A DNA stretch of 54,320 bases from a virus. Positions 1 through 43,407 of this stretch are shown in pieces (position 1 is the stretch's first letter; every line of letters begins with the position of its first letter). The DNA lies in the IMG/VR virus record IMGVR_UViG_3300031673_000059, positions 1 through 54,320 of that record. One strand, written 5' to 3'. The translations under genes were made by a program, and so were the position numbers. The notes beneath the pieces are model-generated. The model had not been told where the DNA came from. It worked only from the letters and a program-made list of their open reading frames with translations, and did not search any database.

Positions 1-1046
1 CTCAGAGGCCCTCCGTCGCGCTTGGTGGGCTTGTTTTCGGCCCTCTTGAGGTCAGAGACCTGCTCCCGGTCTCCGACTAGCTGGGCCTTCTGACGAGCTC
101 TCTCGGCCTCCAGCTGCTCTTTACTCATGCCCATGGTGTCCTCCTCGGGTAAACCATATGGTGCACCCAGGTCCTCGTTTGGTGCGGCGCGGAACTCACG
201 ATGTTTCTCTTCGGAGTGCTGTGCCTCCGGCGGTTCGGGTGCAGGCCCAAGAGACGCGAGAGGACGTAAGTCCGATCGTGTCCTCAGACCGTTAGGTCTG
301 TCTCCCAATACATCTTCTAGTTCATCTGTACAGGGAAGCAGTGTACTGCCCGAGGGTCGGGCAGTACACTGCCATAGGTCAGGCAGTACACTGCCATAGG
401 TCGGGCAAGACACTGCCATACCTATAGCAGTGTCTTGCCCGAGGGTCGGGCAGTGTACTGCCCGAGGGTCAGGCAGTGTACTGCCCGAGGGTGAGTCGTC
501 CAGACTCGCCATCTCAGGCACTTGCGGCCCAGGACCATCACCCAAAGCATCGCCCAGGCCATCGGCAACGGCGTCATCGGCAACGGCGTCCAAATTCCCG
601 CTCGCCCACCCAGCTGGTCTGCCAGTCCGCTTCGGCCCCTTCCGCTGCTTGAATGATCTCCGCTGAAGCTCTTTGACCCCGCCTGACTCCTCGACGTAGG
701 CGATCGCGTCGACCGCTCTGTTGCTCAGTAGGCGCTCCGGGCAGTTGATGGGCGGAGGCTCTACCAGCGTGTAGACCGGGTATCGCTTGTCGTTATCGCG
801 GTAGCTGATGGAGATCAACCCGAGTCGTTCGAGGTTGCGAAGCGAGTCGAAGATAGTTCGCTCGGCTACCCTGAGCTGTCCAGCCAGGGCACCCTTCGTA
901 AGCCTGCAGACCCTCGGTCCGTCGGTCTTCTTGAGGCAGTAGGACATCAGCAGGGAGTAGAGCCTGAAGTCATGGCTGGTGAGGTCTGGGCAGCGGATGA
1001 TGTCGTCGAAGATCTGTGTGAAGAGGCGATTCTTGTCCTTGCTCAT
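1..1046 (-). CDS. Winged-helix DNA-binding protein, paralog 1 of 3. It is 3'-partial: the frame stays open to the window edge. Its C-terminal part spans the 12-mer repeat array.
   Basis: ATG at 1046..1044 overlaps the TGA of the upstream gene (ATGA). Manual translation: MSKDKNRLFTQIFDDIIRCPDLTSHDFRLYSLLMSYCLKK...RVAERTIFDSLRNLERLGLISISY (wHTH-like). There is no in-frame stop down to position 1. It is absent from the ORF track because it is truncated. Confidence 0.6.
   Translation of the reverse strand, partial: MSKDKNRLFTQIFDDIIRCPDLTSHDFRLYSLLMSYCLKKTDGPRVCRLTKGALAGQLRVAERTIFDSLRNLERLGLISISYRDNDKRYPVYTLVEPPPINCPERLLSNRAVDAIAYVEESGGVKELQRRSFKQRKGPKRTGRPAGWASGNLDAVADDAVADGLGDALGDGPGPQVPEMASLDDSPSGSTLPDPRAVHCPTLGQDTAIGMAVSCPTYGSVLPDLWQCTARPSGSTLLPCTDELEDVLGDRPNGLRTRSDLRPLASLGPAPEPPEAQHSEEKHREFRAAPNEDLGAPYGLPEEDTMGMSKEQLEAERARQKAQLVGDREQVSDLKRAENKPTKRDGGPL
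338..495. repeat. Array of 7 dyad-symmetric 12-mers, GCAGTGTACTGC or its complement GCAGTACACTGC (one variant, GCAAGACACTGC, is paired with its own inverse). Period is 22-23 bp. Candidate iteron or operator array.
   Basis: Read directly. Copies start at 338, 361, 383, 405, 428, 450 and 473. Each 12-mer is internally palindromic (GCAGT-NN-ACTGC). The spacing equals two helical turns. The array lies inside the open frame of the 1..1046 minus-strand ORF. Confidence 0.85.
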
Positions 1047-1369
1047 GCGCCGCCTGCACTAGCAAGCTGTCGAAGGACGCTGTAGCCGTTATCTAGGTGC
1101 AGGAGCTCGATGTTCAGCCACCCAGGCGACCGATGGACGATCTTGATGAGTTCGAGCTCAGAGAGACGGCGGAGCGCCCTGCGGACGGTCGACGCGCTGT
1201 AGTTGGTATCGGCGGCCACGGAGCTCACGCTCCCGCAGTCAACCGGGTTGTGATAGTGGGCCCGGTATTCGGCGGCGATGTAGAGGTAGACGATCTTCTC
1301 GGAGGGCGAGAGATCGGCGTCCCGGATAATCCGGCCAGCTACCTCGGTCATCGTCCTATGCTTAGCCAA
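1043..1369 (-). CDS. Winged-helix DNA-binding protein, paralog 2.
   Basis: LSPSEKIVYLYIAAEY...ASTVRRALRRLSELELI aligns with the same region of the flanking paralogs. GGAG lies 7 nt upstream of the TTG at 1369. An alternative ATG is at 1351. Confidence 0.6.
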   Translation of the reverse strand: MAKHRTMTEVAGRIIRDADLSPSEKIVYLYIAAEYRAHYHNPVDCGSVSSVAADTNYSASTVRRALRRLSELELIKIVHRSPGWLNIELLHLDNGYSVLRQLASAGGA

Positions 1370-1757
1370 CGAACTGCTCCGACGAGCTGTTTAGTCGAAT
1401 CAGTCCAGTGTAAGGACCTCGCCGACTCTCCCGGCTAATGAAGCCTCTCTCCTCTAGCCGCGCGAGCACCTCGCACACGGTTCGCTTCGTAAGCCCCGTG
1501 CGCTCTGCGAGAGTTTCGAGGCCGTCGTCGATCTCCTTCGCGCTCGTGCAGAGGTCCATGAGGACCGCGAAGACGCGGACGTCCGACGACCTCATTGACC
1601 GGTCAGACACAAGCCTTCTCGGTACGCGGAGATAGCCCTGTTCACTTCGTTGCATGTGAACCCTCAAGGAGTGGTTAGTGGTGAACTTGACGCCCCGACC
1701 GGCGCAGAAAGAGTCTAGCTTGACCTGAACGGATTTCAAGTCTTTTCCGGCGCGCAT
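1362..1757 (-). CDS. Winged-helix DNA-binding protein, paralog 3.
   Basis: RSSDVRVFAVLMDLCTSAKEIDDGLETLAERTGLTKRTVCEVLARLEERGFI is a wHTH motif paralogous to the two downstream genes. Confidence 0.6.
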   Translation of the reverse strand: MRAGKDLKSVQVKLDSFCAGRGVKFTTNHSLRVHMQRSEQGYLRVPRRLVSDRSMRSSDVRVFAVLMDLCTSAKEIDDGLETLAERTGLTKRTVCEVLARLEERGFISRESRRGPYTGLIRLNSSSEQFVG

Positions 1758-2094: not shown

Positions 2095-5000
2095 TCAGCG
2101 GCCTCGCCACGCAGCTCGAAGGCCGACGTCATCGTGCTCGCCCACGATTGGGTTCCGGTGACCGGGTTCTGGTTCGACGCAGCACCAGTAGGTGCCTCGG
2201 GCAGCGCGACTCTTACCTCGTCTGCTGATGTTGTCGAGGTAGAAAAGCATTCCGGCTCGGTTGTCGAGTGGTTGAAGAGGGGGCGGCCAGAAGGGGTTGG
2301 AGAGTCCCTGTCTGACGAGGGGTCCTGCGAACCGGAGGAATGCTGAGTCGCTGCCCCCCTCAGCGACGACTCGGTCCATGTGTCGCTGGTGGTTTTCGAG
2401 GAGCATGCCTGTAAGAGCTCTTGTGAAACTGTCGTCGACTCCTTCGAGGAGGGGGGCCCATTTCTGGGTGTAGCGGTTGACGATGCTCTGAAACTCTGGT
2501 GCCTCAGCAGCGGCACCTCCAGGCCGCTCTTGGAGTAACTCCTGCCTCAACCTCGTCATGGTAGCGAGGATCTCTGATGGTTGAATCGGCGGTGTCGCAG
2601 ACCCAGTTGAGTCCTCGGACGACGCGACCGTCGTCCACACCTCGCTCGGGGGTGCCGTCGTCGATGGTGGCGCAGAAGACGTTGAGTCCGAGTAACTCGG
2701 GTCCGGGAGCGCCGCCGACGATCCGGACCCACTCAGAAAATCCGAGTCACCTCGCTCTCCAGGCTGACCTGGGCCCGAGCCAGCAACGATGTTCACCGGC
2801 TCGGATGATCCTGGAGTCGAAGGCCTCTCCATGCTGGTAGGACTGCCAGTTACCTCCTCGGACGGTGCAGGATCCGAACCCCATCTGCTCGATGGCTCGG
2901 TCCATGACGGATCGTAGGTAGATTCGACCGCTGGTGTTCCGGGGGGCGATTCCGAAGGTTCCCTCGACGATGTGTGTGAGTGGTCTTGGGTTGACCATGA
3001 TGGCCGCCGCTTCTGCTCTTGTGATGTTTGGGCCGTAGAGGGCCCTAACCCAAAAGGGACGTCATCGGGCCCTCCATGCCGCCCGTGGACCGGCCGTAAA
3101 GTCGGGGAGTTCGGGATCGAGCCACCAGGAATCGGCCCGATCCCACCCCTGCCAGTCTCCGCCTCTGAGCGTGTAGGCGTCGATCCCGATGTAGTGCGCG
3201 ACTTCGGGCGAGACTCGCATCCAGTTGGCTGGGTTTCTGACGGTGAGCTCGTAGATTCGTTGGGCCGCCGCCGCGACCCTGGCGATAAAGGGAGGTCACC
3301 TTGCTCTCCAGGCGCACCTGAGTCCGACGTCTCTGACGTCGTTTCCGGCACCTCGCTGCCGTCTGGCGACGAAGCCCTCGTCCTCTCCTCTGAGGACCTT
3401 AGGTCGATCCTCGGCGGTGATTGCGATGTAGGGGGCGTAGATGAACCCGGTGTCAAGGACTGTGTCGCCCTTGTAGCCGAAGAGGAACCCCGTCCTGTCT
3501 CCGTCCTGGGACTGGTCAACATGGATGAGGCGGCCGCCGTCTTGGGATGAGAATGGGGGCTCTGGGTGGACCGTCCACCCAGGCCTGATCCGAAACCCGA
3601 GTCACCTCGCTCTCCAGGCCCCTCGGAGTCCGAGTCCGTGGTCGAGGTCCCAGCCCCAGACTCTGCCGGTGTCGAGGCCTGGGTCGGCGAGTTCGAGCCA
3701 GCAGATCCCCCGGACCCTGATCCGGGGCTGGAAGGGTCCGAGCCGACCGGCGTTGCGTCCTCCGCGTAGGGGCCCAACCCCATCCCGAGGTCGGAGTAAG
3801 CGTCCATGTGCTCGTAGTCAGCGTACCGGTCGAGCAGCTGCCCGGAAGGAGACATGAGACTGTCGCTCAAGGACCCCGAGCTGGTCTCGCCATCCTGGAG
3901 ATCCCTCTGGGGGTCGTCCGACATTCCAACTGATGGACTTGAGGATGTATGGGATACCGTCCTGGTAGAAGATGCCTCCGAGGTAGCAGCGTCCGAGTTC
4001 GCCGAGCTCGATCTCGCTGCATGGGTTGACCCCGAAGGCTCCGTAGGGTCCGAGCTAATGAACCCTGGCTCTCCAGGCTGTCCTGACGCCTCCTCGGTCA
4101 ATGTTGTGGCCCCTGAAGGAGGCGCCTCGCTCCCAATCCCGGGGGGACTCATCCCAGGAGTAGCTTCGGATGAGGAATCGATGATGTTGCATGCGCTCTC
4201 GGACGGAGAGGCCTGCGTAGGGTCCGAGCTAGGCTCTCCAGGCTGGTCGGAGTCCTGCGTCCTGGGCCCCTCCGACTGCTCGTCCGATGTTGCTGACGGG
4301 GAACGGATAGGTCCCGCCGTTGAGATGATATGTAGGAGGGAATCCGTAGTCAGGAACGGGGTTGATGTAGGGTCCGGGCGTTGCTCGCCGTTAGCGATGT
4401 AGCCATTCTCGGGCAGGTCCTCGACCCCTCGAACCCACTGGCACCTGGTCCATTCGAAGACGTTCCCGCAGTTGTCGTGGAGCCCCCAGTTGTTCGGATC
4501 CTTCAGGCCAACTGCCTTGTGCCCGTCCTCAAACTCGCCGCCGAACCAGGCGATCTTCTTTAGGTCCTCATCCGTGTCGCCGTTGGGGTAGCGCGTAGTC
4601 GCTCCGGCCTTAGTCGCGTATTCCCACATCGCCTCAGAGGGGAGCTGAAAGCCGACCCGCTCACCCTTCTCGTTCCAGAGCCAGGCCTGGTAGGCCGCCT
4701 CGACCTCTGCTGAGAACACCAGCGCTTGGTTCTGGACAGGCAGAGGCATGATGTCCGTGTTGACCTGTTGCTCCCACTCTCTCCACGTCAGCGTGAAGGT
4801 CTGATCTGAGTGTGTGAACTTGCAGTTGGTCAACCGTGCAAAGTCCAGCCGGTTGATGAAGTCCTCGACCTCACGGCACCGATCCCAGGAGACGCTCTCA
4901 ACAGGGTGCTCCCCCCACCTGCGCCCATCAGAGTCCTTCAACTCCATGCGGGTCGCAGGCCCGAACGGCGCGTCACCCATGCGGGTGACGTTAAGCCCCT

Positions 5001-5400
5001 CCTCGACCATTTCGGTCGTAGGGAAGTGACTCGGGAACTCACGTGTGACGCGGTACCACTCACGCCCGGTCCACGGGTACTTCGCCATCAGGAATGGCTC
5101 GTCGAAGGTCCGCTTGACCTGTTGCTGGGCCGTCTCATCATCAGGGTCCGCAGTGGGACCCATCATGAACTCACCCGAAGGGATCAGAACGAAGATCATC
5201 CCCGTCGTCTTGTGCTGATACTCAGCCAGGCCTTGGGAGTTGAGCCCGAGACACGAGAAGAGCTCAGTCTCCTCTACGCGCAGTCCGTAGGGGACGTCGT
5301 TTCCGGCCCTGCGGATTCGCGTGATGTAGTCGCCGCGATCGGCCGCGTCGCCTGTAGCCTGCCAACGGCGTTCTGCTGCTCTTAAAGCGGCGTCTGACAT
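2095..5400 (-). CDS. Large 1101-aa protein. N-terminal FGE-sulfatase (SUMF1/EgtB-like) domain of about 340 aa, then a roughly 500-aa Ser/Pro/Thr/Gly/Asp-rich low-complexity tract, then an unknown C-terminal domain of about 240 aa.
   Basis: N-terminal motifs MIFVLIPSGEFMMGP...FDEPFLMAKYPWTGREWYRVT and RYPNGDTDED...NNWGLHDNCGNVFEWTRCQW match the FGE family signature (xIPAGxFxMG ... GLyDMsGNVWEW). RBS AGGAGA lies 5 nt before the ATG at 5400. A single stop-free 3.3-kb frame is extremely unlikely by chance. Confidence 0.8.
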   Translation of the reverse strand: MSDAALRAAERRWQATGDAADRGDYITRIRRAGNDVPYGLRVEETELFSCLGLNSQGLAEYQHKTTGMIFVLIPSGEFMMGPTADPDDETAQQQVKRTFDEPFLMAKYPWTGREWYRVTREFPSHFPTTEMVEEGLNVTRMGDAPFGPATRMELKDSDGRRWGEHPVESVSWDRCREVEDFINRLDFARLTNCKFTHSDQTFTLTWREWEQQVNTDIMPLPVQNQALVFSAEVEAAYQAWLWNEKGERVGFQLPSEAMWEYATKAGATTRYPNGDTDEDLKKIAWFGGEFEDGHKAVGLKDPNNWGLHDNCGNVFEWTRCQWVRGVEDLPENGYIANGEQRPDPTSTPFLTTDSLLHIISTAGPIRSPSATSDEQSEGPRTQDSDQPGEPSSDPTQASPSESACNIIDSSSEATPGMSPPGIGSEAPPSGATTLTEEASGQPGEPGFISSDPTEPSGSTHAARSSSANSDAATSEASSTRTVSHTSSSPSVGMSDDPQRDLQDGETSSGSLSDSLMSPSGQLLDRYADYEHMDAYSDLGMGLGPYAEDATPVGSDPSSPGSGSGGSAGSNSPTQASTPAESGAGTSTTDSDSEGPGERGDSGFGSGLGGRSTQSPHSHPKTAAASSMLTSPRTETGRGSSSATRATQSLTPGSSTPPTSQSPPRIDLRSSEERTRASSPDGSEVPETTSETSDSGAPGEQGDLPLSPGSRRRPNESTSSPSETQPTGCESRPKSRTTSGSTPTRSEAETGRGGIGPIPGGSIPNSPTLRPVHGRHGGPDDVPFGLGPSTAQTSQEQKRRPSWSTQDHSHTSSREPSESPPGTPAVESTYDPSWTEPSSRWGSDPAPSEEVTGSPTSMERPSTPGSSEPVNIVAGSGPGQPGERGDSDFLSGSGSSAALPDPSYSDSTSSAPPSTTAPPSEVWTTVASSEDSTGSATPPIQPSEILATMTRLRQELLQERPGGAAAEAPEFQSIVNRYTQKWAPLLEGVDDSFTRALTGMLLENHQRHMDRVVAEGGSDSAFLRFAGPLVRQGLSNPFWPPPLQPLDNRAGMLFYLDNISRRGKSRAARGTYWCCVEPEPGHRNPIVGEHDDVGLRAAWRGR

Positions 5401-5428: not shown

Positions 5429-6817
5429 TCAGACTCCAAAGAGCGCATGGAAGAAGCTCTTGGGCTGGTAGGCCTTCTTCTCGGGCTGCTTGGGCGTGAC
5501 CTTGACATTGGGCGAACTGGGACCACTCGACGGATCGAGTCGCAGCAGCTCATCACCGCTCATGGGGCCCCGAAGGAAGCTGTAGGCCCACCGGATCTTG
5601 GTCACAGCGTGCTCCCCGCTCTTCTTCAGGATCAGGAAGTGCCGCTGAGGAATCGACGTCAGGGTCGACGTGTCCACGTTCCGGCTGGAAAGCTCCTTCT
5701 TGAGGTCCCGGGCGCAGTCCCGGGGCCGCAGCTTGCCGAGGAACCAAGTGCCGACGTTGGTCAGCGCCTTGTAGTCCATGTCGTTAGGGTTCTGAGTCCC
5801 GATCAGCATACCGATGCCCTGGGCCCGGCCCTGAGCGAGGAGCGTGCAGATCGGCTTCTTGGTCGGCGGGTTGAGCGGGTAGGGCGGGAGGTAGCCCCGC
5901 GCCTCGTCCAAGACGACCAGCAGCTTCAGCTTGTTGCTGGCCGGCGCCCGGAACATGTAGTCCACGATCGCCGACAGCAGCATGCCAGCGAAGAACTGCC
6001 GCTCACCCTCGTCCAGGTGTCGGAGGGAGAACACCGAGACCTTAGGCTTGCCGGTGCCCACGTAGCTCTCGATCGAGAGCGGAGAACCGTCGAGCCACTT
6101 GGTCGCTTGCCGCCGGAAGCCGACGATCGACCGAGCGATCTGCATCCGCTTCTTCTTGGGGAAGAAGTCGTCGAGGCTCAGGCCATCGATCTCCTTCAGA
6201 TTGGCAGGGGGCGTGTTCAGAGCGGCGGACCACGTGTCCAGACCGGCCGCCTGACCCGAGGCCCAGGCGTCGACCATCACGTCCGTCAGGAAGACGTTCG
6301 CGGGGTCGGTCATGGGGTCGGCGGTGTGGCCGATCGCGTTGAGGACTCCGGCGACCAGGGCCGAGGCCCGGTCCCGCAGCGCTTGCTCACTGTAGTTGCC
6401 GGTGGGAGCGTCGAAGGACGCCAGGACGTTGACGGACTGGCCGCCGCCTCGGGTCTTGCCGGGGGCGTAGATCGTGACATCGGCGGCCGACTTCCACCGC
6501 TGGACGTTGGGAGCCAGGTGGCCGAGCTCCTTCCGAGCTCGGTCAGCGATCTCGCCCGGGTCCTTGCCGTCCTCCGCCCAGGGAGCGAATTCGCCGGCGG
6601 CCAGACCGGGGAAGGCCAGGGCCAGATTGGTGAGGTCGCCCTTGGGGTCAATGATGATCGCGGACGCGCCGCTCAGCACGGCCTCTTCGATCGTGGCGAC
6701 GGTGGCGCCGGTCTTGCCGGAGCCGGTCCGACCCAGGACCACGCCGTGGGTGGTAAGGTCGGCGGGGTCGATCGTGAGAGGAGTTCCGTCGTTCTTGGTG
6801 CCGATCAACATGCTCAT
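5429..6817 (-). CDS. HerA/FtsK-like P-loop ATPase (DUF87-type).
   Basis: Walker A GRTGSGKTG and Walker B LLVVLDEA. The start is placed at the internal ATG at 6817 (MSMLIGTK...) because the GGTAGAAA-N5-ATG start-associated motif precedes it. The ORF track begins at 6856. Confidence 0.75.
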   Translation of the reverse strand: MSMLIGTKNDGTPLTIDPADLTTHGVVLGRTGSGKTGATVATIEEAVLSGASAIIIDPKGDLTNLALAFPGLAAGEFAPWAEDGKDPGEIADRARKELGHLAPNVQRWKSAADVTIYAPGKTRGGGQSVNVLASFDAPTGNYSEQALRDRASALVAGVLNAIGHTADPMTDPANVFLTDVMVDAWASGQAAGLDTWSAALNTPPANLKEIDGLSLDDFFPKKKRMQIARSIVGFRRQATKWLDGSPLSIESYVGTGKPKVSVFSLRHLDEGERQFFAGMLLSAIVDYMFRAPASNKLKLLVVLDEARGYLPPYPLNPPTKKPICTLLAQGRAQGIGMLIGTQNPNDMDYKALTNVGTWFLGKLRPRDCARDLKKELSSRNVDTSTLTSIPQRHFLILKKSGEHAVTKIRWAYSFLRGPMSGDELLRLDPSSGPSSPNVKVTPKQPEKKAYQPKSFFHALFGV

Positions 6818-6909
6818 GGTTGTTTCTACCTTTCTTAGCCTTGTGGCTTCAACCACTACGCCGCCCTGCCACGATTCATCGAACTCGGGTATCAGTAAGC
6901 AGGTGACTT

Positions 6910-16692: not shown

Positions 16693-17058
16693 ATGAAGAC
16701 CGGCGCGAGGAAGGCAGTCGTCCGTAAGCTACGGAAGATGGTGAACCGGCATATCGGCAACATGGTCGATGAGAAGTTCGAAATGGGCTGCCTGGCGGCA
16801 AGTCTGTTCCCGGACTGGGTTGAGAGCGACTACTCCACCTTTGATCTTTACCTGTTCCACGGCTGTGGAATCCCATGGAACATCGCCAGTCGCCTGGAGA
16901 CGATGGCTCACACCTACTACGAGATTCCATCTCTTCAGATTTGGATGCAGGTGGGATACACAAGAGCCGCCCAAGCAGCCGGACAAGGCCGAGAGGGCCA
17001 AATCCGAGCGCTGCTTGAAAGCGGCTCTAATGTGCTAGACGTGATGACGTTGATCTAG
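16693..17058 (+). CDS. Hypothetical protein.
   Basis: 121-aa ORF. GGTAGAAT lies 5 nt upstream of the ATG. Confidence 0.55.
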   Translation: MKTGARKAVVRKLRKMVNRHIGNMVDEKFEMGCLAASLFPDWVESDYSTFDLYLFHGCGIPWNIASRLETMAHTYYEIPSLQIWMQVGYTRAAQAAGQGREGQIRALLESGSNVLDVMTLI

Positions 17059-18140
17059 ACGGCGATCGGCGCTTCGGTGCAGACCGTGGTGAGGATCCTG
17101 GTGCAGACCCGGTAGGGGTCGCAGTTGGCTCCGGGTCGCCGATCTTCGATGTAGCCGTAGCCCTGCTGGGCTACCTGGGCGGGGATGCGGATCGAGCAGC
17201 CGCGATCACTGTCACCGACCTTGAACGTGTTGATGTCGCACGTCTCGTGCTTGCCGGTCAGGCGCTTCTCCAGGCCGAAGCCGTAGTCTGCGATGTGCTC
17301 GGCGTGGACCTCCGACATCGCCTTGACCGCCGCCGCGATAGCCGACTTGCCGGTGCCTGGGTCTCGCATCTCCTTCGTGGAGAAGTTTGTGTGAGCGCCC
17401 GCACCGTTCCAGTCGCCTTGCTCAGGCTTGCAGTTGAGGGTGGCCGAGATGCCGTAGTCCTCGCCGATCCGGAACAGGAGCCAACGCGCAAAGATCAGGT
17501 GATCTGCGACTGTGAGAGGGTCGGCTGACTCGCCCGGGAACCCAGGACGATGACCGATCTGGAACTCCCACTGACCCAGCATGACTTCGGCATTGATGCC
17601 GTAGATCATCAGCCCGGCCCTCATGCAGGCGCTGAGGTGATCCTCGACCAGCTTGCGGCCCGCAACCTCGTCAGCTCCGACGCCGCAGTAGTAGGGTCCC
17701 TGAGCGCGCTGCGGGAGTCCCTTCTCCGGCCATCCAAGGGGGCGGCCAGTGTCTAGGTTGTAGAGCGTGTACTCCTGCTCGAAGCCGAACCAGGGATCGT
17801 GGTCCTCAGCGACCGACATGATGTCCCGCAGACGGCTGCGAGTGTTGGTCTTGTGCGGCATGTCGTCTGGAGTGGTGACCTCGCACAGGACCAGGAAGTT
17901 GGCGCCGCCGCGAATCGGGTCGTTGACGACGCGAACCGGGGTGAGCACCTGGTCTGAGTTGGACGTCCCCGCCTGATTGGTCGACGAGCCGTCGAAACCC
18001 CAGACCGGAAAGGACGTGTAGTCGATGACGCCCTTCTGATCATCGGGTAGATAGACCACACGGGTCTTCGACCGAAGGTTCTGGACAGGGATGTCGGCGG
18101 ATCCGCCGTCCATCCAGATGTATTCAGCTCGTACGTGCAT
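17055..18140 (-). CDS. glnII: Glutamine synthetase type II (eukaryote-like GSII).
   Basis: EYIWMDGGS N-terminus, GPYYCGVG, NAEVMLGQWEFQIG, DWNGAGAHTNFST and CSIRIP are hallmark GSII motifs. Length is 361 aa. RBS AGGAAGGG. Confidence 0.85.
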   Translation of the reverse strand: MHVRAEYIWMDGGSADIPVQNLRSKTRVVYLPDDQKGVIDYTSFPVWGFDGSSTNQAGTSNSDQVLTPVRVVNDPIRGGANFLVLCEVTTPDDMPHKTNTRSRLRDIMSVAEDHDPWFGFEQEYTLYNLDTGRPLGWPEKGLPQRAQGPYYCGVGADEVAGRKLVEDHLSACMRAGLMIYGINAEVMLGQWEFQIGHRPGFPGESADPLTVADHLIFARWLLFRIGEDYGISATLNCKPEQGDWNGAGAHTNFSTKEMRDPGTGKSAIAAAVKAMSEVHAEHIADYGFGLEKRLTGKHETCDINTFKVGDSDRGCSIRIPAQVAQQGYGYIEDRRPGANCDPYRVCTRILTTVCTEAPIAV

Positions 18141-33840: not shown

Positions 33841-34806
33841 CTAGTAGGGCGTTCCGGCCAACGTGATCAGAGATGCGAACTCCGGCCTCACGAGTGTGAT
33901 TTTGTGCCGGGTGCGGATCGCGCGCCGAAGAGTCTTGTCGGCCGGATCTACGAAGTTCGGTGTGATCTCGACCATGGTGTAAGGACTGTAGATGACGCAC
34001 GTATCCATTACGCTGTCGTCTGCCTGATACCAGGCCAGCAGCTTCCCTACGGGGAAGAGGGGATCCAGGTAGACGCCCCTGCCGTCAACCTCGCCGATTT
34101 TGGCGATGCCGTCTGCCTCTTGGACGTCAAAGCCAAGCTGGGCCAGCATCGCCGCGTTGCCAATGACCCTGTTTGCCGGGTTCCGCTGAGACCCCCGATG
34201 GACGATGTGGGCCGCCCTGTCCAGAGCTTCTTTGAGATCACCGCCGGCGGCCAACTCGATCTTGTTGTTGTCCAGGACGCCGTTCAGGATCGTTCCTACG
34301 ATCTCCCGAGCCACCTCGGTCAGGAGTGCGTCGATGTTCAGAGCCCCCTCTTCGTTGACGTCGGTGTGTGCCTTGCAGCGCCTCGACTCCGCTCGGATCT
34401 CTTGAGGGATGATGTCCAGCACGACGGAAGGCACCTTGACCTTCCTCTCGACGCCGTCTTGAATCAGGGTCGCCTCCTCCATCTCCCCGAAGCGCGGCTT
34501 GTAGTAGTAGACGATCCCGATCGGCCCAGTCATCGGCTGCACCGCGCAGAGGTCCGGGAGCACGTGGGTCCGGACCGAGGCCTTGAGGTTATCGAAGAGA
34601 TCCTCCGTCCACGAGCCGAGGACCAATGCCCGGGTCTCCTCGACGAGACGCTGAAGGTGTCTGCTCTGGTTCTCGCAGACCATGGCAGCGATGTTCGACC
34701 TGTAGCCGTCCTCTAGGCCCCACTTGGTGCGGAGCTTCTCTAGATAGCTCTCGTCCGGCATACCATCAAGCTGAGTCATAGTTCCTCCTGATGCGGAGGG
34801 TACCAC
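33841..34806 (-). CDS. T4 gp24-like capsid vertex protein (paralog of 34825..35778).
   Basis: KLRTKWGL...AMVCENQ, VQPMTGPIGIV, NPANRVIGNAAMLAQLG and YLDPLFP...VIYSPY match conserved T4 gp23/gp24 blocks (KW..L.G...A.I..FENQ; CGVQPM..P.G; N.I..S.N....L; Y.D....YYAPY). Confidence 0.6.
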   Translation of the reverse strand: MVPSASGGTMTQLDGMPDESYLEKLRTKWGLEDGYRSNIAAMVCENQSRHLQRLVEETRALVLGSWTEDLFDNLKASVRTHVLPDLCAVQPMTGPIGIVYYYKPRFGEMEEATLIQDGVERKVKVPSVVLDIIPQEIRAESRRCKAHTDVNEEGALNIDALLTEVAREIVGTILNGVLDNNKIELAAGGDLKEALDRAAHIVHRGSQRNPANRVIGNAAMLAQLGFDVQEADGIAKIGEVDGRGVYLDPLFPVGKLLAWYQADDSVMDTCVIYSPYTMVEITPNFVDPADKTLRRAIRTRHKITLVRPEFASLITLAGTPY

Positions 34807-34824
34807 AACTACATCAGATTTACA

Positions 34825-35778
34825 TCAGACAATCTGCGCCAACCGCTCCAGGACGTTGACCTTAACCACCTGGATGTGGCTCGGATGGGCCACATGGATG
34901 TTGTGGTTCAGGTAGATCGCGAAGTTGTGGCGGCCGTCCATCGGATCGAGCGGGTAGCAGAAGGGCGAGTAGACGACCGGCGTGTCTACGATGCTTGGTC
35001 CCATGTACCAGAGCATTACTTCACCGTCAGGGAACAGCGGATCCAGGTAGACGTGCATCCTCTGCTTGTAGACGCCTACCTTCTTCACCAGGCCGGTATC
35101 AGTCGTGTCCCACTCGTCCGGATCCTCCGGCGAGAAAAGCTCCAACATCTTCTCATTGCCGATCACGTGATTGGCCGGGCCCCGCATGCAGCGCTTGTGG
35201 ACCATCTGCGAGGCGCGAAGGATATCAGTGTCGAACGCGGTGTAGGTCGACTCCAACACATTGCCGGCGGCCGATCCCGCGCCGTGCATGACGCCCAACA
35301 CCTCGCGGATGGACGCCAGCATGACCGAGTCGAACACGCTGTCGATGAGCGCGAAGTTTCCTGGGTAGATCCTGACGCCGAGTCGCCTGATGGAGGCTTG
35401 GACGTTGACCGTCTGCAGGTTCAACGTCATCGTCGGGATCGATGTGCTCCCAGGAGTAGTGGGTCCGGCCGGCGTGGTGATGTTGGTTTGGCCGTAGAAG
35501 CCGATGGTGTCTGATGGCCTCCGTAGGGGCTGGACCGACACCATGTCGATCAGGGGGCAGTGCACCCAGGCCTTCACGAGAGCTCGGTAGAACTTGTCCT
35601 TCCAGTTGTCGCCATAGGTCTCTTCCAGATCATCGGGGATCAGCGATGAGCAAAGGACGTTGGCCTGGTTCTCCAACAGTAGAGCGATGACGCCAGAGCG
35701 CTTGTGATGGCCGGGGAGGTAACCCTCCCACTTCTCGGTCAGAGCCTTGATGTGGTCGTTGTCCAACATGGTGGGCAT
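34825..35778 (-). CDS. T4 gp23-like major capsid protein (short form).
   Basis: LTEKWEGYL...ALLLENQ, VQPLRRPSDTIGFYG, GPANHVIGNEKML and YLDPLFPDGEVMLWY...VVYSPF. Paralog of the adjacent gene. Confidence 0.6.
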   Translation of the reverse strand: MPTMLDNDHIKALTEKWEGYLPGHHKRSGVIALLLENQANVLCSSLIPDDLEETYGDNWKDKFYRALVKAWVHCPLIDMVSVQPLRRPSDTIGFYGQTNITTPAGPTTPGSTSIPTMTLNLQTVNVQASIRRLGVRIYPGNFALIDSVFDSVMLASIREVLGVMHGAGSAAGNVLESTYTAFDTDILRASQMVHKRCMRGPANHVIGNEKMLELFSPEDPDEWDTTDTGLVKKVGVYKQRMHVYLDPLFPDGEVMLWYMGPSIVDTPVVYSPFCYPLDPMDGRHNFAIYLNHNIHVAHPSHIQVVKVNVLERLAQIV

Positions 35779-38657: not shown

Positions 38658-39259
38658 TCGTCTTCCTTGTCCGATTTGTCTAGGGCGTGGACGATCCGGT
38701 CTAGGAGCGGCATCGTCTCGTCTTCCAGCTCCCACTCGTGGACCTGACACATCATCCGGCATACTTCGTGGAAGTCGCTGATCCGCCTCTTGCCCCAGTA
38801 CTTGTCCCGAATGACGGCGGTGGCCGGAGCCTCCCAAGAGTAGTTGTTGTCCGTCCAGCAGTAGTTCTGCTCGGTACCCTCGGTCCATTGGTGGATCGTC
38901 GCCTGCGTGTCGGACATTAGCTGGAGGCCGTGCGCAACCTCGATCGCGTGGGCTCGCATGAGCTCGACGTTTGGCACGTTCCGCATGATGATTGTGATTA
39001 CCTCGCCGCTCCTGTCGTGAGCGACCGGGTCGGTCTTGTGGAGGACCAACTTGCTCACGTCCCGCCAGGGGATGTGGAAGCACTTCTCCAGCATCGCAAG
39101 TCGGTCGTAACCATCATCAGGCTTGTGTCTGAAGCACAACGCCTCGTAGGCACCGTCCTCTCTCCGATATAGCTGGGTGCAGAACCGACCTCCTCTGCCG
39201 CCCTCTTGGTGGCACTTGGTGCAGTGAAGCTCGCCCCTGAAGACCTTGCCGTTTTCCAT
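38651..39259 (-). CDS. Hypothetical Cys/His-rich protein.
   Basis: 202-aa ORF. GGTAGAAG lies 4 nt upstream of the ATG. Confidence 0.55.
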   Translation of the reverse strand: MENGKVFRGELHCTKCHQEGGRGGRFCTQLYRREDGAYEALCFRHKPDDGYDRLAMLEKCFHIPWRDVSKLVLHKTDPVAHDRSGEVITIIMRNVPNVELMRAHAIEVAHGLQLMSDTQATIHQWTEGTEQNYCWTDNNYSWEAPATAVIRDKYWGKRRISDFHEVCRMMCQVHEWELEDETMPLLDRIVHALDKSDKEDEA

Positions 39260-39283
39260 ACCTCTTCTACCTAGAAAGAGGTA

Positions 39284-40450
39284 TTAGGCGTCCACGGTTC
39301 CAGACTCGTCCTTGTCGTAGAACCACTCCATGATCCGCTTGTGGATCAGCTCCTCCATCTCGGAGTCCGAGACCCACGGACCAACGCCCGGGAACTCGAA
39401 GAGCGCTCCACCCTCGGCCGATCCATCAGGGAGCGACTTGGCCCCCGACTTGTCGCCGAACCGGTCTGCGAGCGTCTCGCCGAGGGGTGTGGTGTAGTCC
39501 TCGCTCCTGGCGCAGACTCGAATCTTCAGTGTGACATCGCCGGTTGTCTTGTCCTTGACCTCGACAACCGCCCACGTGACCGCCAACGGCGCTCCGACGG
39601 TCCTCAGGAGCTCATCGGCGACCATGGCCAGGTCGTCGCCGCACTTCTCCGGGATCCGGCCCAGACCGCCTAGGATTCGACCCTTACGGTAGGTGTCGTG
39701 CTTGTCCACGTAGGCTACTGCTCGGGACAGGTGCTTCAGGAAGGAGAACTGGCGCTTGTAGTTGACCAGGTCGCAGAGCAAGGAAGCGTCTGTGTAGCGC
39801 TTGACCCAGGCATAGGCCTGGTCATCACGCTCCCCCGACCGTGTGTTGCTCTTGCAGTCGGTGTAAATGCCGAGGGCGAGCATCAGCGCCAGGTCGGATT
39901 TGAACTCCCAGGTCTCCGGCGTGATCTCTGAAAGAAGCTCTGCGACCATCGTACTTGCCGAGCCTGAACTCTCGTCGAGCCAGAGAAAGATGTCCTCTCG
40001 GTCCTTGATGTCAGACTTCTCGTGATGATCGACCACGATCACCGGCTCGATCACGAAGGGCAGGCGGCTGTCCTTTGACTTGCTGGAGTCGACCAGGACG
40101 ATGTTCTCTGGGCACTGACCGGATGAATCAGTGTTCGGGTCCGTGAGCGACCGCATCCTGCTCATCAGACCGAGCTTCTGGCAGAGCGCCTCGTTTTGGG
40201 GATGCCCCACTCGTCCTTGGTAGTAGATGTGAGAGGTATGGCCGAGTTGGCTCAGGACTTCTTGCATACCGAAGGCCGACCCGATTGCGTCGGGGTCGAT
40301 CTGAGCGATGTAGATGGCGAATGGGCCATGCTCGGCCCGTTCCGCCGCCACTCGCCTCAACTTCTCGATACGACTCTCGTCGATACCGGGGCGTGCGATC
40401 TTCCGGGTAACGGTCATCGTCTCCTGGGCAAGCGCCTTTACTTCGGCCAT
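39284..40450 (-). CDS. DHH-family phosphoesterase (NrnA/RecJ-like).
   Basis: IYIAQIDPDAIGSAFG, NIVLVDSSKS and PVIVVDHH (DHH motif). The start is MAEVKAL at 40450, with GAGG 7 nt upstream. Confidence 0.7.
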   Translation of the reverse strand: MAEVKALAQETMTVTRKIARPGIDESRIEKLRRVAAERAEHGPFAIYIAQIDPDAIGSAFGMQEVLSQLGHTSHIYYQGRVGHPQNEALCQKLGLMSRMRSLTDPNTDSSGQCPENIVLVDSSKSKDSRLPFVIEPVIVVDHHEKSDIKDREDIFLWLDESSGSASTMVAELLSEITPETWEFKSDLALMLALGIYTDCKSNTRSGERDDQAYAWVKRYTDASLLCDLVNYKRQFSFLKHLSRAVAYVDKHDTYRKGRILGGLGRIPEKCGDDLAMVADELLRTVGAPLAVTWAVVEVKDKTTGDVTLKIRVCARSEDYTTPLGETLADRFGDKSGAKSLPDGSAEGGALFEFPGVGPWVSDSEMEELIHKRIMEWFYDKDESGTVDA

Positions 40451-43098: not shown

Positions 43099-43407
43099 GT
43101 GGACGTCGACGCAGTTCGCAGAGCAGCAAGCGAGCCATGCGCAGCTTCCCTGACGTCTTGTTCAGAGTGCAAGGGTTCAGGGGAGTGTACTGCTGATGTG
43201 AATGACATTGGTGACTGCAAGAAGTGTGGCTGGTCAGCAGAGAACCACTGGGGCGGATCGCGGCGGTGCACTTCTTGTTTTGGCTGGGGCACAGAGACAG
43301 AGTATCCTTGCTGGCAGTACATCAACGACACGCCTGACCTTTGGTGCGACTCCTGTAAGGCGCAGCCGCCCGAAGTGACGGACGAGCAGTTCTACGAGGA
43401 GCATTAG
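43099..43407 (+). CDS. Small Cys-rich protein.
   Basis: CSECKGSGEC...CKKCGW...CTSCFGWG...CDSCK. Confidence 0.5.
   Translation: MDVDAVRRAASEPCAASLTSCSECKGSGECTADVNDIGDCKKCGWSAENHWGGSRRCTSCFGWGTETEYPCWQYINDTPDLWCDSCKAQPPEVTDEQFYEEH

Follow-up and report, generated by a model that had tools for sequence, protein, structure and literature searches.

An array of seven phased, near-palindromic repeats at positions 337–485 of a 54,320-nucleotide stretch of viral DNA (IMG/VR record IMGVR_UViG_3300031673_000059; this whole stretch is hereafter called the window) is probably the iteron part of a replication origin embedded in the phage's own initiator gene. The gene in question, g1, is encoded on the minus strand and is preceded by two small genes, g2 and g3; all three encode proteins with winged-helix domains. 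The initial annotation of this DNA had likened the locus to that of phage lambda, where the origin lies within the O gene, and this likeness is supported by the position of the array in an interdomain linker of g1, the spread of the repeats over the reading frames, the conservation of the layout in 11 lineages, an adjoining AT-rich segment, and a downstream module of helicase loader, DnaB and primase genes.

An array of iterons within the g1 gene

The seven copies of the 12–14 bp unit (~14–17 bp with its flanks, GGCAGTGTACTGCC[CGA]) lie within the minus-strand frame that runs from 1046 past position 1, at codons 188–237 of g1 (Table 1). The core 12-mers start at 338, 361, 383, 405, 427, 450, and 473, i.e., at successive spacings of 23, 22, 22, 22, 23, and 23 bp. 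Five of the seven cores are exact copies of GCAGTGTACTGC or its reverse complement, and the two central ones are variants with two mismatches each (GCAAGACACTGC at 405 and GCAGTGTCTTGC at 427). The symmetry of the core is imperfect: the arms, GCAGT and ACTGC, are symmetric but the central GT/AC dinucleotide is not, so that each site has an orientation (+ - - - + + + along the plus strand). Thus, the array described in the initial annotation is real and located where it was placed, but the count of seven palindromic copies has to be reduced to five exact ones and two variants of an imperfect palindrome. The period of 22–23 bp is confirmed too, although the sites are not strictly in phase, neighbors being only roughly on the same face of the helix (2.1–2.2 turns apart); the frame is indeed open to the window edge, over 348 codons, but on the minus strand.

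The array is far beyond chance: it forms a chain of seven related 12-mers at 21–24 bp spacing, whereas no chain exceeds two in any of the remaining 25 pieces of 2 kb or in 200 dinucleotide-preserving shuffles. In the rest of the 54 kb, the motif is absent save for a single match with one mismatch at 43182. A search of IMG/VR DNA with GGCAGTGTACTGCC matched 93 stretches, with a single copy in every one listed and no array; these are chance matches. The repeat exists at the level of DNA, given that its period of 22–23 bp is not a multiple of three and that the sites, which occur in both orientations, are read in all three frames (1, 0, 2, 0, 1, 2, and 1). The peptide echoes in the translated linker (GSTLP, AVHCP, WQCTA, and others) are the same DNA repeat in different frames.

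Iterons 3 and 4 together form a 20-bp inverted repeat (95%) centered at 421/422. We considered this large inverted repeat as a functional unit and rejected it because relatives do not keep the orientation of the sites. Shortly ahead of the iterons in gene order, at 560–589, there is also a perfect 15-bp tandem duplication (CATCGGCAACGGCGT twice), which encodes AVADDAVADG in the linker and, unlike the iterons, has a period that is a multiple of three.

Table 1. Coordinates of features at the g1 locus of the window and in related lineages
Feature	Locus	Position	Strand	Sequence or description
g1	Window	1..1046	-	ATG at 1046; 348 open codons, the 5' two-thirds of the gene, cut by the window edge
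g2	Window	1043..1369	-	108-aa free-standing winged-helix protein; stop overlaps g1 start (ATGA, 1046-1043)
g3	Window	1362..1655	-	97-aa winged-helix protein; longest open reading frame starts at 1757 (131 aa)
Promoter-like site	Window	1712..1739	-	TTGAAA-16 nt-TAGACT, in a longer block conserved in five lineages: GGAAAAGACTTGAAAT...GCTAGACT
Promoter block	Window	1700-1745	-	
Promoter block	L094	9290-9350		
Promoter block	L095	3700-3760		
Promoter block	L106	2530-2590		
Promoter block	L107	2560-2630		
Iteron 1 (gene order; farthest from AT-rich stretch)	Window	472..485		GGCAGTGTACTGCC
Iteron 2	Window	449..462		GGCAGTGTACTGCC
Iteron 3 (variant, two core mismatches)	Window	426..439		AGCAGTGTCTTGCC
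Iteron 4 (variant, opposite orientation)	Window	404..417		GGCAAGACACTGCC
Iteron 5	Window	382..395		GGCAGTACACTGCC
Iteron 6	Window	360..373		GGCAGTACACTGCC
Iteron 7 (adjoins AT-rich stretch)	Window	337..350		AGCAGTGTACTGCC
Candidate DNA-unwinding element	Window	301..336	-	AT-rich, coding strand purine-rich: CCCTGTACAGATGAACTAGAAGATGTATTGGGAGA
Hairpin 1	Window	285..300	-	CAGACC-TAAC-GGTCTG (coding strand); also predicted in the single-stranded DNA fold
Hairpin 2	Window	260..285	-	Core GGAC-TTAC-GTCC (262-273) inside GAGGAC..14 nt..GTCCTC
Site sequence	Window, L095			GGCAGTGTACTGCC
Site sequence	L094			TGGCAACCAGTTGCCA
Site sequence	L104, L105			GGAACTGGAGTTCC
Site sequence	L106			GGAAGTACACTTCC
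Site sequence	L107			CGAACTGGGGTTCG
Site sequence	L101			TGAACTCCAGTTCA
Site sequence; own iteron type, swapped N-terminal domain	L108	2355-3935		GGTATCACACGTGATACC
Site sequence; own iteron type, swapped N-terminal domain	L109	3001-4755		GGGTCACCAGTGACCC
Site sequence; own iteron type, swapped N-terminal domain	L110	3001-4536		TCCGCA-N4-TGCGGA

The array lies in the linker of a two-domain protein

The full length of the g1 protein, 521 amino acids (aa), is known from a 97%-identical relative (P0001). A word-indexed search returned three homologues of 521–537 aa (97%, 42%, and 47% identity), and an exhaustive hidden Markov model search of 1.84 billion cluster representatives yielded 65 family members at E <= 1e-3, ~20 of them full length and none with a name. 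The family is thus rare. A megablast of the locus, a megablast of the related locus L094 and a tblastn of the protein produced no match among GenBank phages, and no relative was found in a scan of GTDB (one genome per species), so that nothing points to a copy in a prophage or chromosome.

The family alignment falls into three parts, namely, a conserved N-terminal domain (residues 1–145), a middle peptide that is not conserved, and a conserved C-terminal domain (~350–490). The same division is seen in an AlphaFold2 (AF2) model built with 16 sequences: residues 10–125 form a winged helix (predicted local distance difference test, pLDDT, 80–93), residues 147–305 show no confident structure (pLDDT below 50), and residues 350–487 form a helical domain (pLDDT 85–96). 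The GC content at third codon positions drops from ~0.85 in the N-terminal domain to ~0.55 after codon 140, across the linker. The initial annotation had regarded a position within a structured, conserved domain as an argument for repeats driven by coding; the opposite was found, the array being located in the predicted disordered interdomain linker (codons from ~147).

With respect to known families, the winged-helix parts of g1, g2, and g3 all match PHROG families of 'replication initiation protein', 'O-like' or 'DnaD-like' type, the weak 'O-like' matches being confined to g2 and g3. For 'DnaD-like helicase loader', g1 itself reaches only E = 0.088 and a distant family member (P0026) 2e-6. 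The best structural matches of the g1 N-terminal domain in a Foldseek search of the PDB are the N-terminal domains of RepA_N plasmid initiators (4pql and 5kbj; E about 3e-3), and a PDB sequence search with the family profile retrieved only generic winged helices (E >= 0.02). In Pfam, the winged-helix matches of the g1 protein all stay below threshold. It is not a member of HTH_36 (PF13730): no match is listed for the window protein or P0001, and the homologue P0003 scores 14.2 bits.

The form of the array is conserved, its sequence is not

The initial annotation had proposed to look for the array in related phages. The comparison set comprised 11 lineages, i.e., the window and g1-homologue DNA from ten further lineages, plus duplicates. 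In all 11, there are 4–7 dyad-symmetric sites in the same part of the g1 gene, with the same layout but different sequences (Table 1). The sites nearest the AT-rich stretch are 21–24 bp apart, and those farther away are sometimes 32–36 or 44–46 bp apart. Lineages share the spacing and the dyad form, in most cases with an asymmetric center of 2 nt, but not the site sequence; this is the pattern that would be expected of sites co-evolving with a dimeric DNA-binding protein. In L101, L106, L108, and L109, all sites share one orientation. Among the four closest relatives (window/L096, L095, and L094), the gene coordinate of the last site hardly shifts.

Four members of the family (P0020, P0028, P0033, and P0034) combine a different winged-helix N-terminal domain with the same C-terminal domain. 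In the three of these for which the DNA was read, the iterons are unrelated, suggesting that the g1 N-terminal domain and its iterons move as a unit, the junction being at the origin. A correspondence between the class of the N-terminal domain and a TCAC-type iteron of 24-bp period held for L108 and L109 but failed for L110, and is not claimed.

The window and L096, which are otherwise 99.9% identical, differ at 24 positions in 1–171 and at only two in 172–2200. This sharp mosaic boundary, ~100 bp beyond the candidate origin in the initiator linker, is consistent with a recombination junction at the origin, but could also be an assembly chimera at the contig edge. Several contigs and gene calls end in or beside the array (L098 starts at g1 residue 251, and P0068, P0069, and P0071 are truncated products of 217–239 aa), which probably reflects assembly breaks at the repeats.

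An unstable AT-rich stretch and two stem-loops follow the last site

In all lineages, the last site is followed by ~36–40 bp that are 60–70% AT, against a background of ~40%, and purine-rich on the coding strand. In the window, this candidate DNA-unwinding element opens with the junction motif CCnGTACAGA, which is common to the window, L095, L094, and L101. Duplex stability was assessed as the nearest-neighbor energy of 36-mers over loci of 5–21 kb. In eight of ten loci, the least stable 36-mer of the stretch is within the top 0.12% of the least stable 36-mers, and in most lineages no duplex of the locus is less stable; in the window it is located at 292–327, is the least stable of the first 6 kb, and ranks within their top 0.02%.

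Beyond the AT-rich stretch, there is a stem-loop (hairpin 1) with equivalents in other lineages: ATACC-TAAC-GGTAT, ATCCC-TTAC-GGGAT, AGTCC-TAAC-GGACT, AGACC-TAAC-GGTCT, AAACC-TAAC-GGTTT, GCTGTC-TAAA-GACAGC, CCATCTTCC-TAC-GGAAGATGG, CCTCCC-TTACA-GGGAGG, and GGCTC-TAAC-GAGCC. An unbiased scan found a perfect inverted repeat with a loop of the TAAC/TTAC/TAAA/TAC type 3' of the last iteron in 10 of the 11 lineages, out of only 15 such inverted repeats in the 91.5 kb scanned. It starts 36–46 nt after the last site in nine lineages and 105 nt after it in L108. A second stem-loop (hairpin 2) begins 52–66 nt after the last site; in relatives, its stems are perfect, 5–9 bp long and of unrelated sequence, and the window version is weaker. 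Covariation was counted on a MAFFT alignment of nine lineages: 85% of the stem cells are paired, compared with 28–39% when the partners are slid by 1–3 columns, and 13 cells are compensatory, versus 4.4 +/- 1.6 in shuffles, none of 500 shuffles reaching 13.

The linker peptide P-N-G is the translation of CCT-AAC-GG in hairpin 1. The stem-loop is still present where this peptide is replaced by SKD, SSYGRW or PYREG, which indicates that the constraint acts on the nucleic acid. A search of Rfam 15 returned only generic hairpin (miRNA-precursor) matches at 19–30 bits, compared with thresholds of 60–100.

The replication module and the local GC skew

The genes that follow g1 lie beyond the window edge and were read in the relatives. 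Directly 3' of g1, every relative encodes a ~213-aa protein with a DnaC/DnaI/IstB-like AAA+ domain (phrog_50, 3.6e-19), which also matches NCBIfam PRK08116 and DnaI below the cut-offs. Next in every relative come a DnaB-type helicase and then a Toprim/DnaG-type primase, followed in L094 and L096, where enough downstream sequence is available, by a second helicase and a RecA-like protein. In several relatives, the DnaB gene carries an intein with a LAGLIDADG endonuclease domain (L094 12252-14879, L104 2537-5155, and L108 4588-6935). The ResIII helicase of L094 (16074-18809) also bears a LAGLIDADG intein; the close relative L096 has no inteins.

Of the GC-skew plots suggested in the initial annotation, that of the 54-kb window is uninformative, the skew following gene blocks. 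When the window is extended on its left by the 10.5 kb available from L096, negative skew prevails over ~7 kb on the left side of the array and positive skew over ~11 kb on the right side, and the minimum of the cumulative skew falls within ~1–2 kb of the array. L094 shows the same change of sign (-0.024 and +0.033 in gene orientation). The sign changes at the array despite the co-orientation of the genes on both sides; as the effect is small and local, it is only weakly consistent with an origin.

The small winged-helix genes and the upstream promoter

The g2 protein is a member of HTH_36 (31.4 bits; cut-off 25) and is 27% identical to the N-terminal domain of g1 (E 2e-5). The g3 protein falls below the HTH_36 threshold (23.3 bits) and has no BLASTP similarity to either g1 or g2; hence, of the three paralogous genes proposed in the initial annotation, only g1 and g2 are recognizable as such. 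The coupling through overlapping ATGA codons that had been described for all three holds for the g2/g1 junction, the g3/g2 junction being an 8-nt overlap (1362–1369) that exists only if g2 starts with TTG.

The promoter-like site upstream of g3 reads as a -35/-10 promoter with additional conserved flanks. The block has the pattern GGAAAAGACTTG(A/C)AAT-N15-GCTAGACTC, is found upstream of a g3-type gene in five lineages, and occurs once in the 54-kb window. The short, 97-aa form of g3 is the likelier one given that the conserved promoter falls inside the long reading and that the relatives start at an ATG equivalent to 1655. This promoter (1739–1712) probably drives g3-g2-g1 and the replication genes, with transcription crossing the candidate origin.

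The g2-type genes are present in L094, L096, L104, and L105 and were not found in L095, L106, and L107. The g3-type genes are present in L094, L095, L096, L104 (C-terminal end only, at a contig edge), L106, and L107; L109 has a more distant one (39% identity), and near L105 none was found. The identity of g3 to the window protein is 76–83% in L095, L094, and L106 and 60% in L107, with iterons that differ. Across lineages, g3 can be 82–83% identical where the g1 N-terminal domains are only 60–67% identical and the iterons are different. Being nearly invariant while the iterons change, g3 cannot set iteron specificity. We considered g2 and g3 as iteron-binding proteins and judged either unlikely, on account of this near-invariance of g3 and because neither gene is always present. 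At least one small winged-helix gene is always located upstream of g1, not always the same one, and of the winged-helix proteins g1 alone is present with every array. More likely, g3 recognizes something conserved, such as the promoter block, and it may be an autoregulator of that promoter.

Alternative explanations

The strongest competitor of an origin is a regulatory role, in which the array would mainly be an operator or roadblock through which a winged-helix protein (g1, g2 or g3) throttles g1 and the downstream replication genes. Three winged-helix genes in one operon directly upstream, the location of the array between the promoter and the replication genes, and the very stable single-strand fold predicted for the inverted arrangement of sites (-84 kcal/mol, z = -12.8), which could impede ribosomes, all fit such a role; nevertheless, we consider it unlikely. 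It leaves unexplained the least stable, AT-rich segment and the two stem-loops at fixed offsets, and the large hairpin is not conserved, as is evident from the four lineages in which all sites have one orientation. Furthermore, there is no copy of the site at the operon promoter and g3 does not track the iterons, so that the repressor or master regulatory locus also entertained in the initial annotation is not supported. Besides, the roles of operator and origin are not exclusive: in lambda, transcription through the origin is part of initiation.

A centromere-like partition site, a packaging site or another recognition site bound by a small winged-helix protein (cf. TubR/tubC and ParB/parS) appears highly improbable. 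Type III (TubR/tubC) centromeres typically have arrays of about seven short repeats to which winged-helix proteins bind, TubR is among the weak Foldseek matches (E about 1e-2), and a HerA/FtsK-like ATPase with a weak match to a terminase family is encoded 5 kb away. However, dozens of generic winged helices match at least as well as TubR, and a partition or packaging site does not need the adjoining unwinding element. No partition nucleoside triphosphatase (ParA, ParM or TubZ) was found among the called genes of 10 related loci, where the invariable neighbors are the loader, DnaB, and the primase; the partition locus suggested in the initial annotation is not supported either.

Least probable of all is a coding by-product, in which a low-complexity linker would hold tandem peptide repeats and its DNA would have no function: the region is translated, its frame is open in all homologues and peptide echoes are visible, but a protein-driven repeat is excluded by the reading of the sites in all frames and both orientations at a period that is not a multiple of three, the dyad symmetry and DNA spacing are conserved between lineages where no peptide is, the stem-loop is kept where the post-array peptide changes, and disorder is predicted for the region.

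An origin within the initiator gene remains the reading that we favor, and several observations weigh against it. The AT-rich stretch ranks only eighth among the least stable places in the 54 kb, most of the others appearing to be intergenic, and its instability is weaker in two lineages, L108 and the AT-rich L101. For the hairpins, a role in mRNA instead of DNA would fit the data equally well. The local skew is small (~0.02–0.03), at best ~3 standard errors, in one lineage. At the level of protein families, the PHROG 'replication initiation protein' matches of the g1 N-terminal domain are weak (E about 1e-4), and its RepA_N scores in Foldseek are no better than those of many generic MarR/Crp winged helices. 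At threshold, g1 matches none of the initiator families of Pfam or NCBIfam, nor is there a Pfam initiator-family match at E <= 0.1-1 or any NCBIfam match. The C-terminal domain has no recognizable relative, and an hhalign comparison of the g1 family profile with lambda O is not significant (probability 0.5%, E 0.11). Finally, large phages may use recombination-dependent or multiple origins, so that the array need not be the only one.

A proposed course of initiation and its implications

By analogy with known origins of this kind, we propose the following scheme. Transcription from the promoter at 1739–1712 would produce g3, g2, and g1, and then, past the window edge, the DnaC-like loader, the DnaB-type helicase, and the DnaG-type primase. 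Dimers of the g1 N-terminal winged helix would bind the seven dyads at 337–485, where the spacing of ~2.1–2.2 helical turns would place neighbors on roughly the same face with a steady offset, an arrangement that would suit wrapping in a structure like the lambda O-some. The resulting strain would open the adjoining 36-bp AT-rich, purine-rich segment (301–336), the conserved C-terminal domain of g1 would bring in the loader and DnaB, and the primase would start synthesis. The stem-loops at 285–300 and 260–285 could form in the unwound strand and may mark the start for the helicase or primase.

A more specific idea, which we put forward tentatively and regard as rather doubtful, is that the stem-loops are a new, dedicated origin element of this huge-phage lineage, i.e., hairpins in single-stranded DNA that would direct the DnaB loader and/or the DnaG-type primase to the first priming site, with g2 and g3 tuning the firing and the DNA code of the origin dictating part of the initiator peptide, e.g., P-N-G.

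To our knowledge, huge phages known only from metagenomes cannot be cultured and have no experimentally defined origins. The locus offers a precise candidate origin of ~230 bp together with a candidate set of initiator, loader, helicase, and primase, which could be rebuilt in vitro or used for mini-replicons. It is also a case of overlapping codes, in which binding sites, an unwinding element, and stem-loops are accommodated in a translated linker and the peptide follows the constraints of the DNA. Where a gene upstream of dnaB shows phased dyads followed by an AT-rich stretch and a CC-TAAC-GG hairpin, this signature could serve to locate origins in related genomes from metagenomes.

The phage genome

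The locus had been taken for the left end of the element, but it continues for more than 10 kb past the left edge of the window in L096, and at the right end the window cuts a gene. Relatives of g1 are located on contigs of 85–369 kb, so the window comes from the interior of a huge phage genome. Among its genes are those for two gp23-like major capsid proteins, a tail-collar protein, an ATP-dependent DNA ligase, and a DEAD-box helicase; a scan of the window for tRNAs found none. The capsid genes are adjacent paralogues (33841-35778, minus strand; 321 and 317 aa), each matching the T4 gp23 major capsid family.

Upstream of the replication operon, at 2095-5400 (minus strand), is the gene for an 1101-aa protein whose N-terminal domain is of the FGE-sulfatase (formylglycine-generating enzyme-like) type and whose tail of ~750 aa is of low complexity and rich in S/T/P/G; a gene with this domain is equally placed in L094, L096, and L107. 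It is preceded by a gene for a HerA/FtsK-like P-loop ATPase (DUF87; 5429-6856, minus strand) with a weak match to PHROG 'terminase large subunit', again as in L094 and L096. Elsewhere, the window encodes a glutamine-synthetase-like protein (17055-18140, minus strand; Gln-synt_C and Gln-synt_N) and, at 51425-54319 (plus strand, cut by the window end), a protein of >964 aa with a major-vault-protein shoulder domain (PF11978, 1.6e-22) and a weak vault repeat, which is unusual in a phage.

Comparison with known systems

The layout of the locus matches that of the RepA_N plasmid initiators of Gram-positive bacteria (e.g., pSK41 RepA; 4pql, 4pt7, 4pta, and 5kbj), but on the protein side a fold-level resemblance of the N-terminal domain is the only link of g1 to them. 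There is no match of g1 to Pfam RepA_N, and these initiators belong to plasmids rather than phages and lack a dedicated loader-helicase-primase operon.

In Bacillus phage SPP1, oriL consists of boxes bound by G38P, a protein without an AAA+ domain, and an AT-rich unwinding element, all embedded in gene 38, which is followed by the genes for the loader G39P and the DnaB-type helicase G40P (PMC5737612). The gene order initiator-loader-helicase is thus the same. In contrast to the evenly phased dyads described here, SPP1 has boxes in direct repeat; it relies on the primase of the host, whereas here a primase gene follows the helicase; and SPP1 has a second G38P site (oriR), whereas no second array was seen in the 54-kb window. 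No Pfam or PHROG match ties g1 to the G38P family.

The closest parallel is lambda. The O gene (38686-39585) contains four 18-bp dyad iterons (39034, 39054, 39078, and 39101; O codons 116–144), such that in both phages the origin, or candidate origin, occupies a central stretch of the initiator gene, flanked by the segment for the N-terminal DNA-binding region and that for the C-terminal region that binds the loader or would do so. The lambda dyads of ~18 bp are, as here, 20–24 bp apart, and after them comes an AT-rich tract of 38 bp, rich in purines on the O coding strand (PMC3349717). An inverted repeat after the AT-rich tract (GTCAGAG..14 nt..CTCTGAC in lambda) and a helicase loader gene next to the initiator gene (P in lambda) are shared features as well. 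Among the lambdoid phages, which include Stx phages with six iterons, six-iteron variants lengthen O, and the iterons nearest the AT-rich tract are preferred (PMC7466680); the number of iterons likewise varies among the relatives studied here, altering the length of the protein, and in both groups the N-terminal domain and iterons are exchanged as a module.

The differences from lambda are also considerable. The g1 protein is much longer than O (521 versus 299 aa), has no match to Pfam Phage_rep_O, and its C-terminal domain is unrelated. There are seven sites rather than 4–6, the loader is of the AAA+ DnaC/DnaI-like type and not lambda P, and this phage encodes its own DnaB and primase. Furthermore, two covarying stem-loops with a conserved CC-TAAC-GG core are found here at a fixed distance, and the additional free-standing winged-helix genes g2 and g3 are located upstream.

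The kind of system, an origin inside an initiator gene, has been textbook knowledge since lambda. The initiator family, the occurrence of such a locus in huge uncultivated phages, the pair of stem-loops by the unwinding element, and the accompanying small winged-helix genes are new. The hallmarks of a lambda-type intragenic origin, namely, phased repeats in an initiator-like gene, an adjoining AT-rich element, and loader and helicase genes that follow, are all found at this locus.

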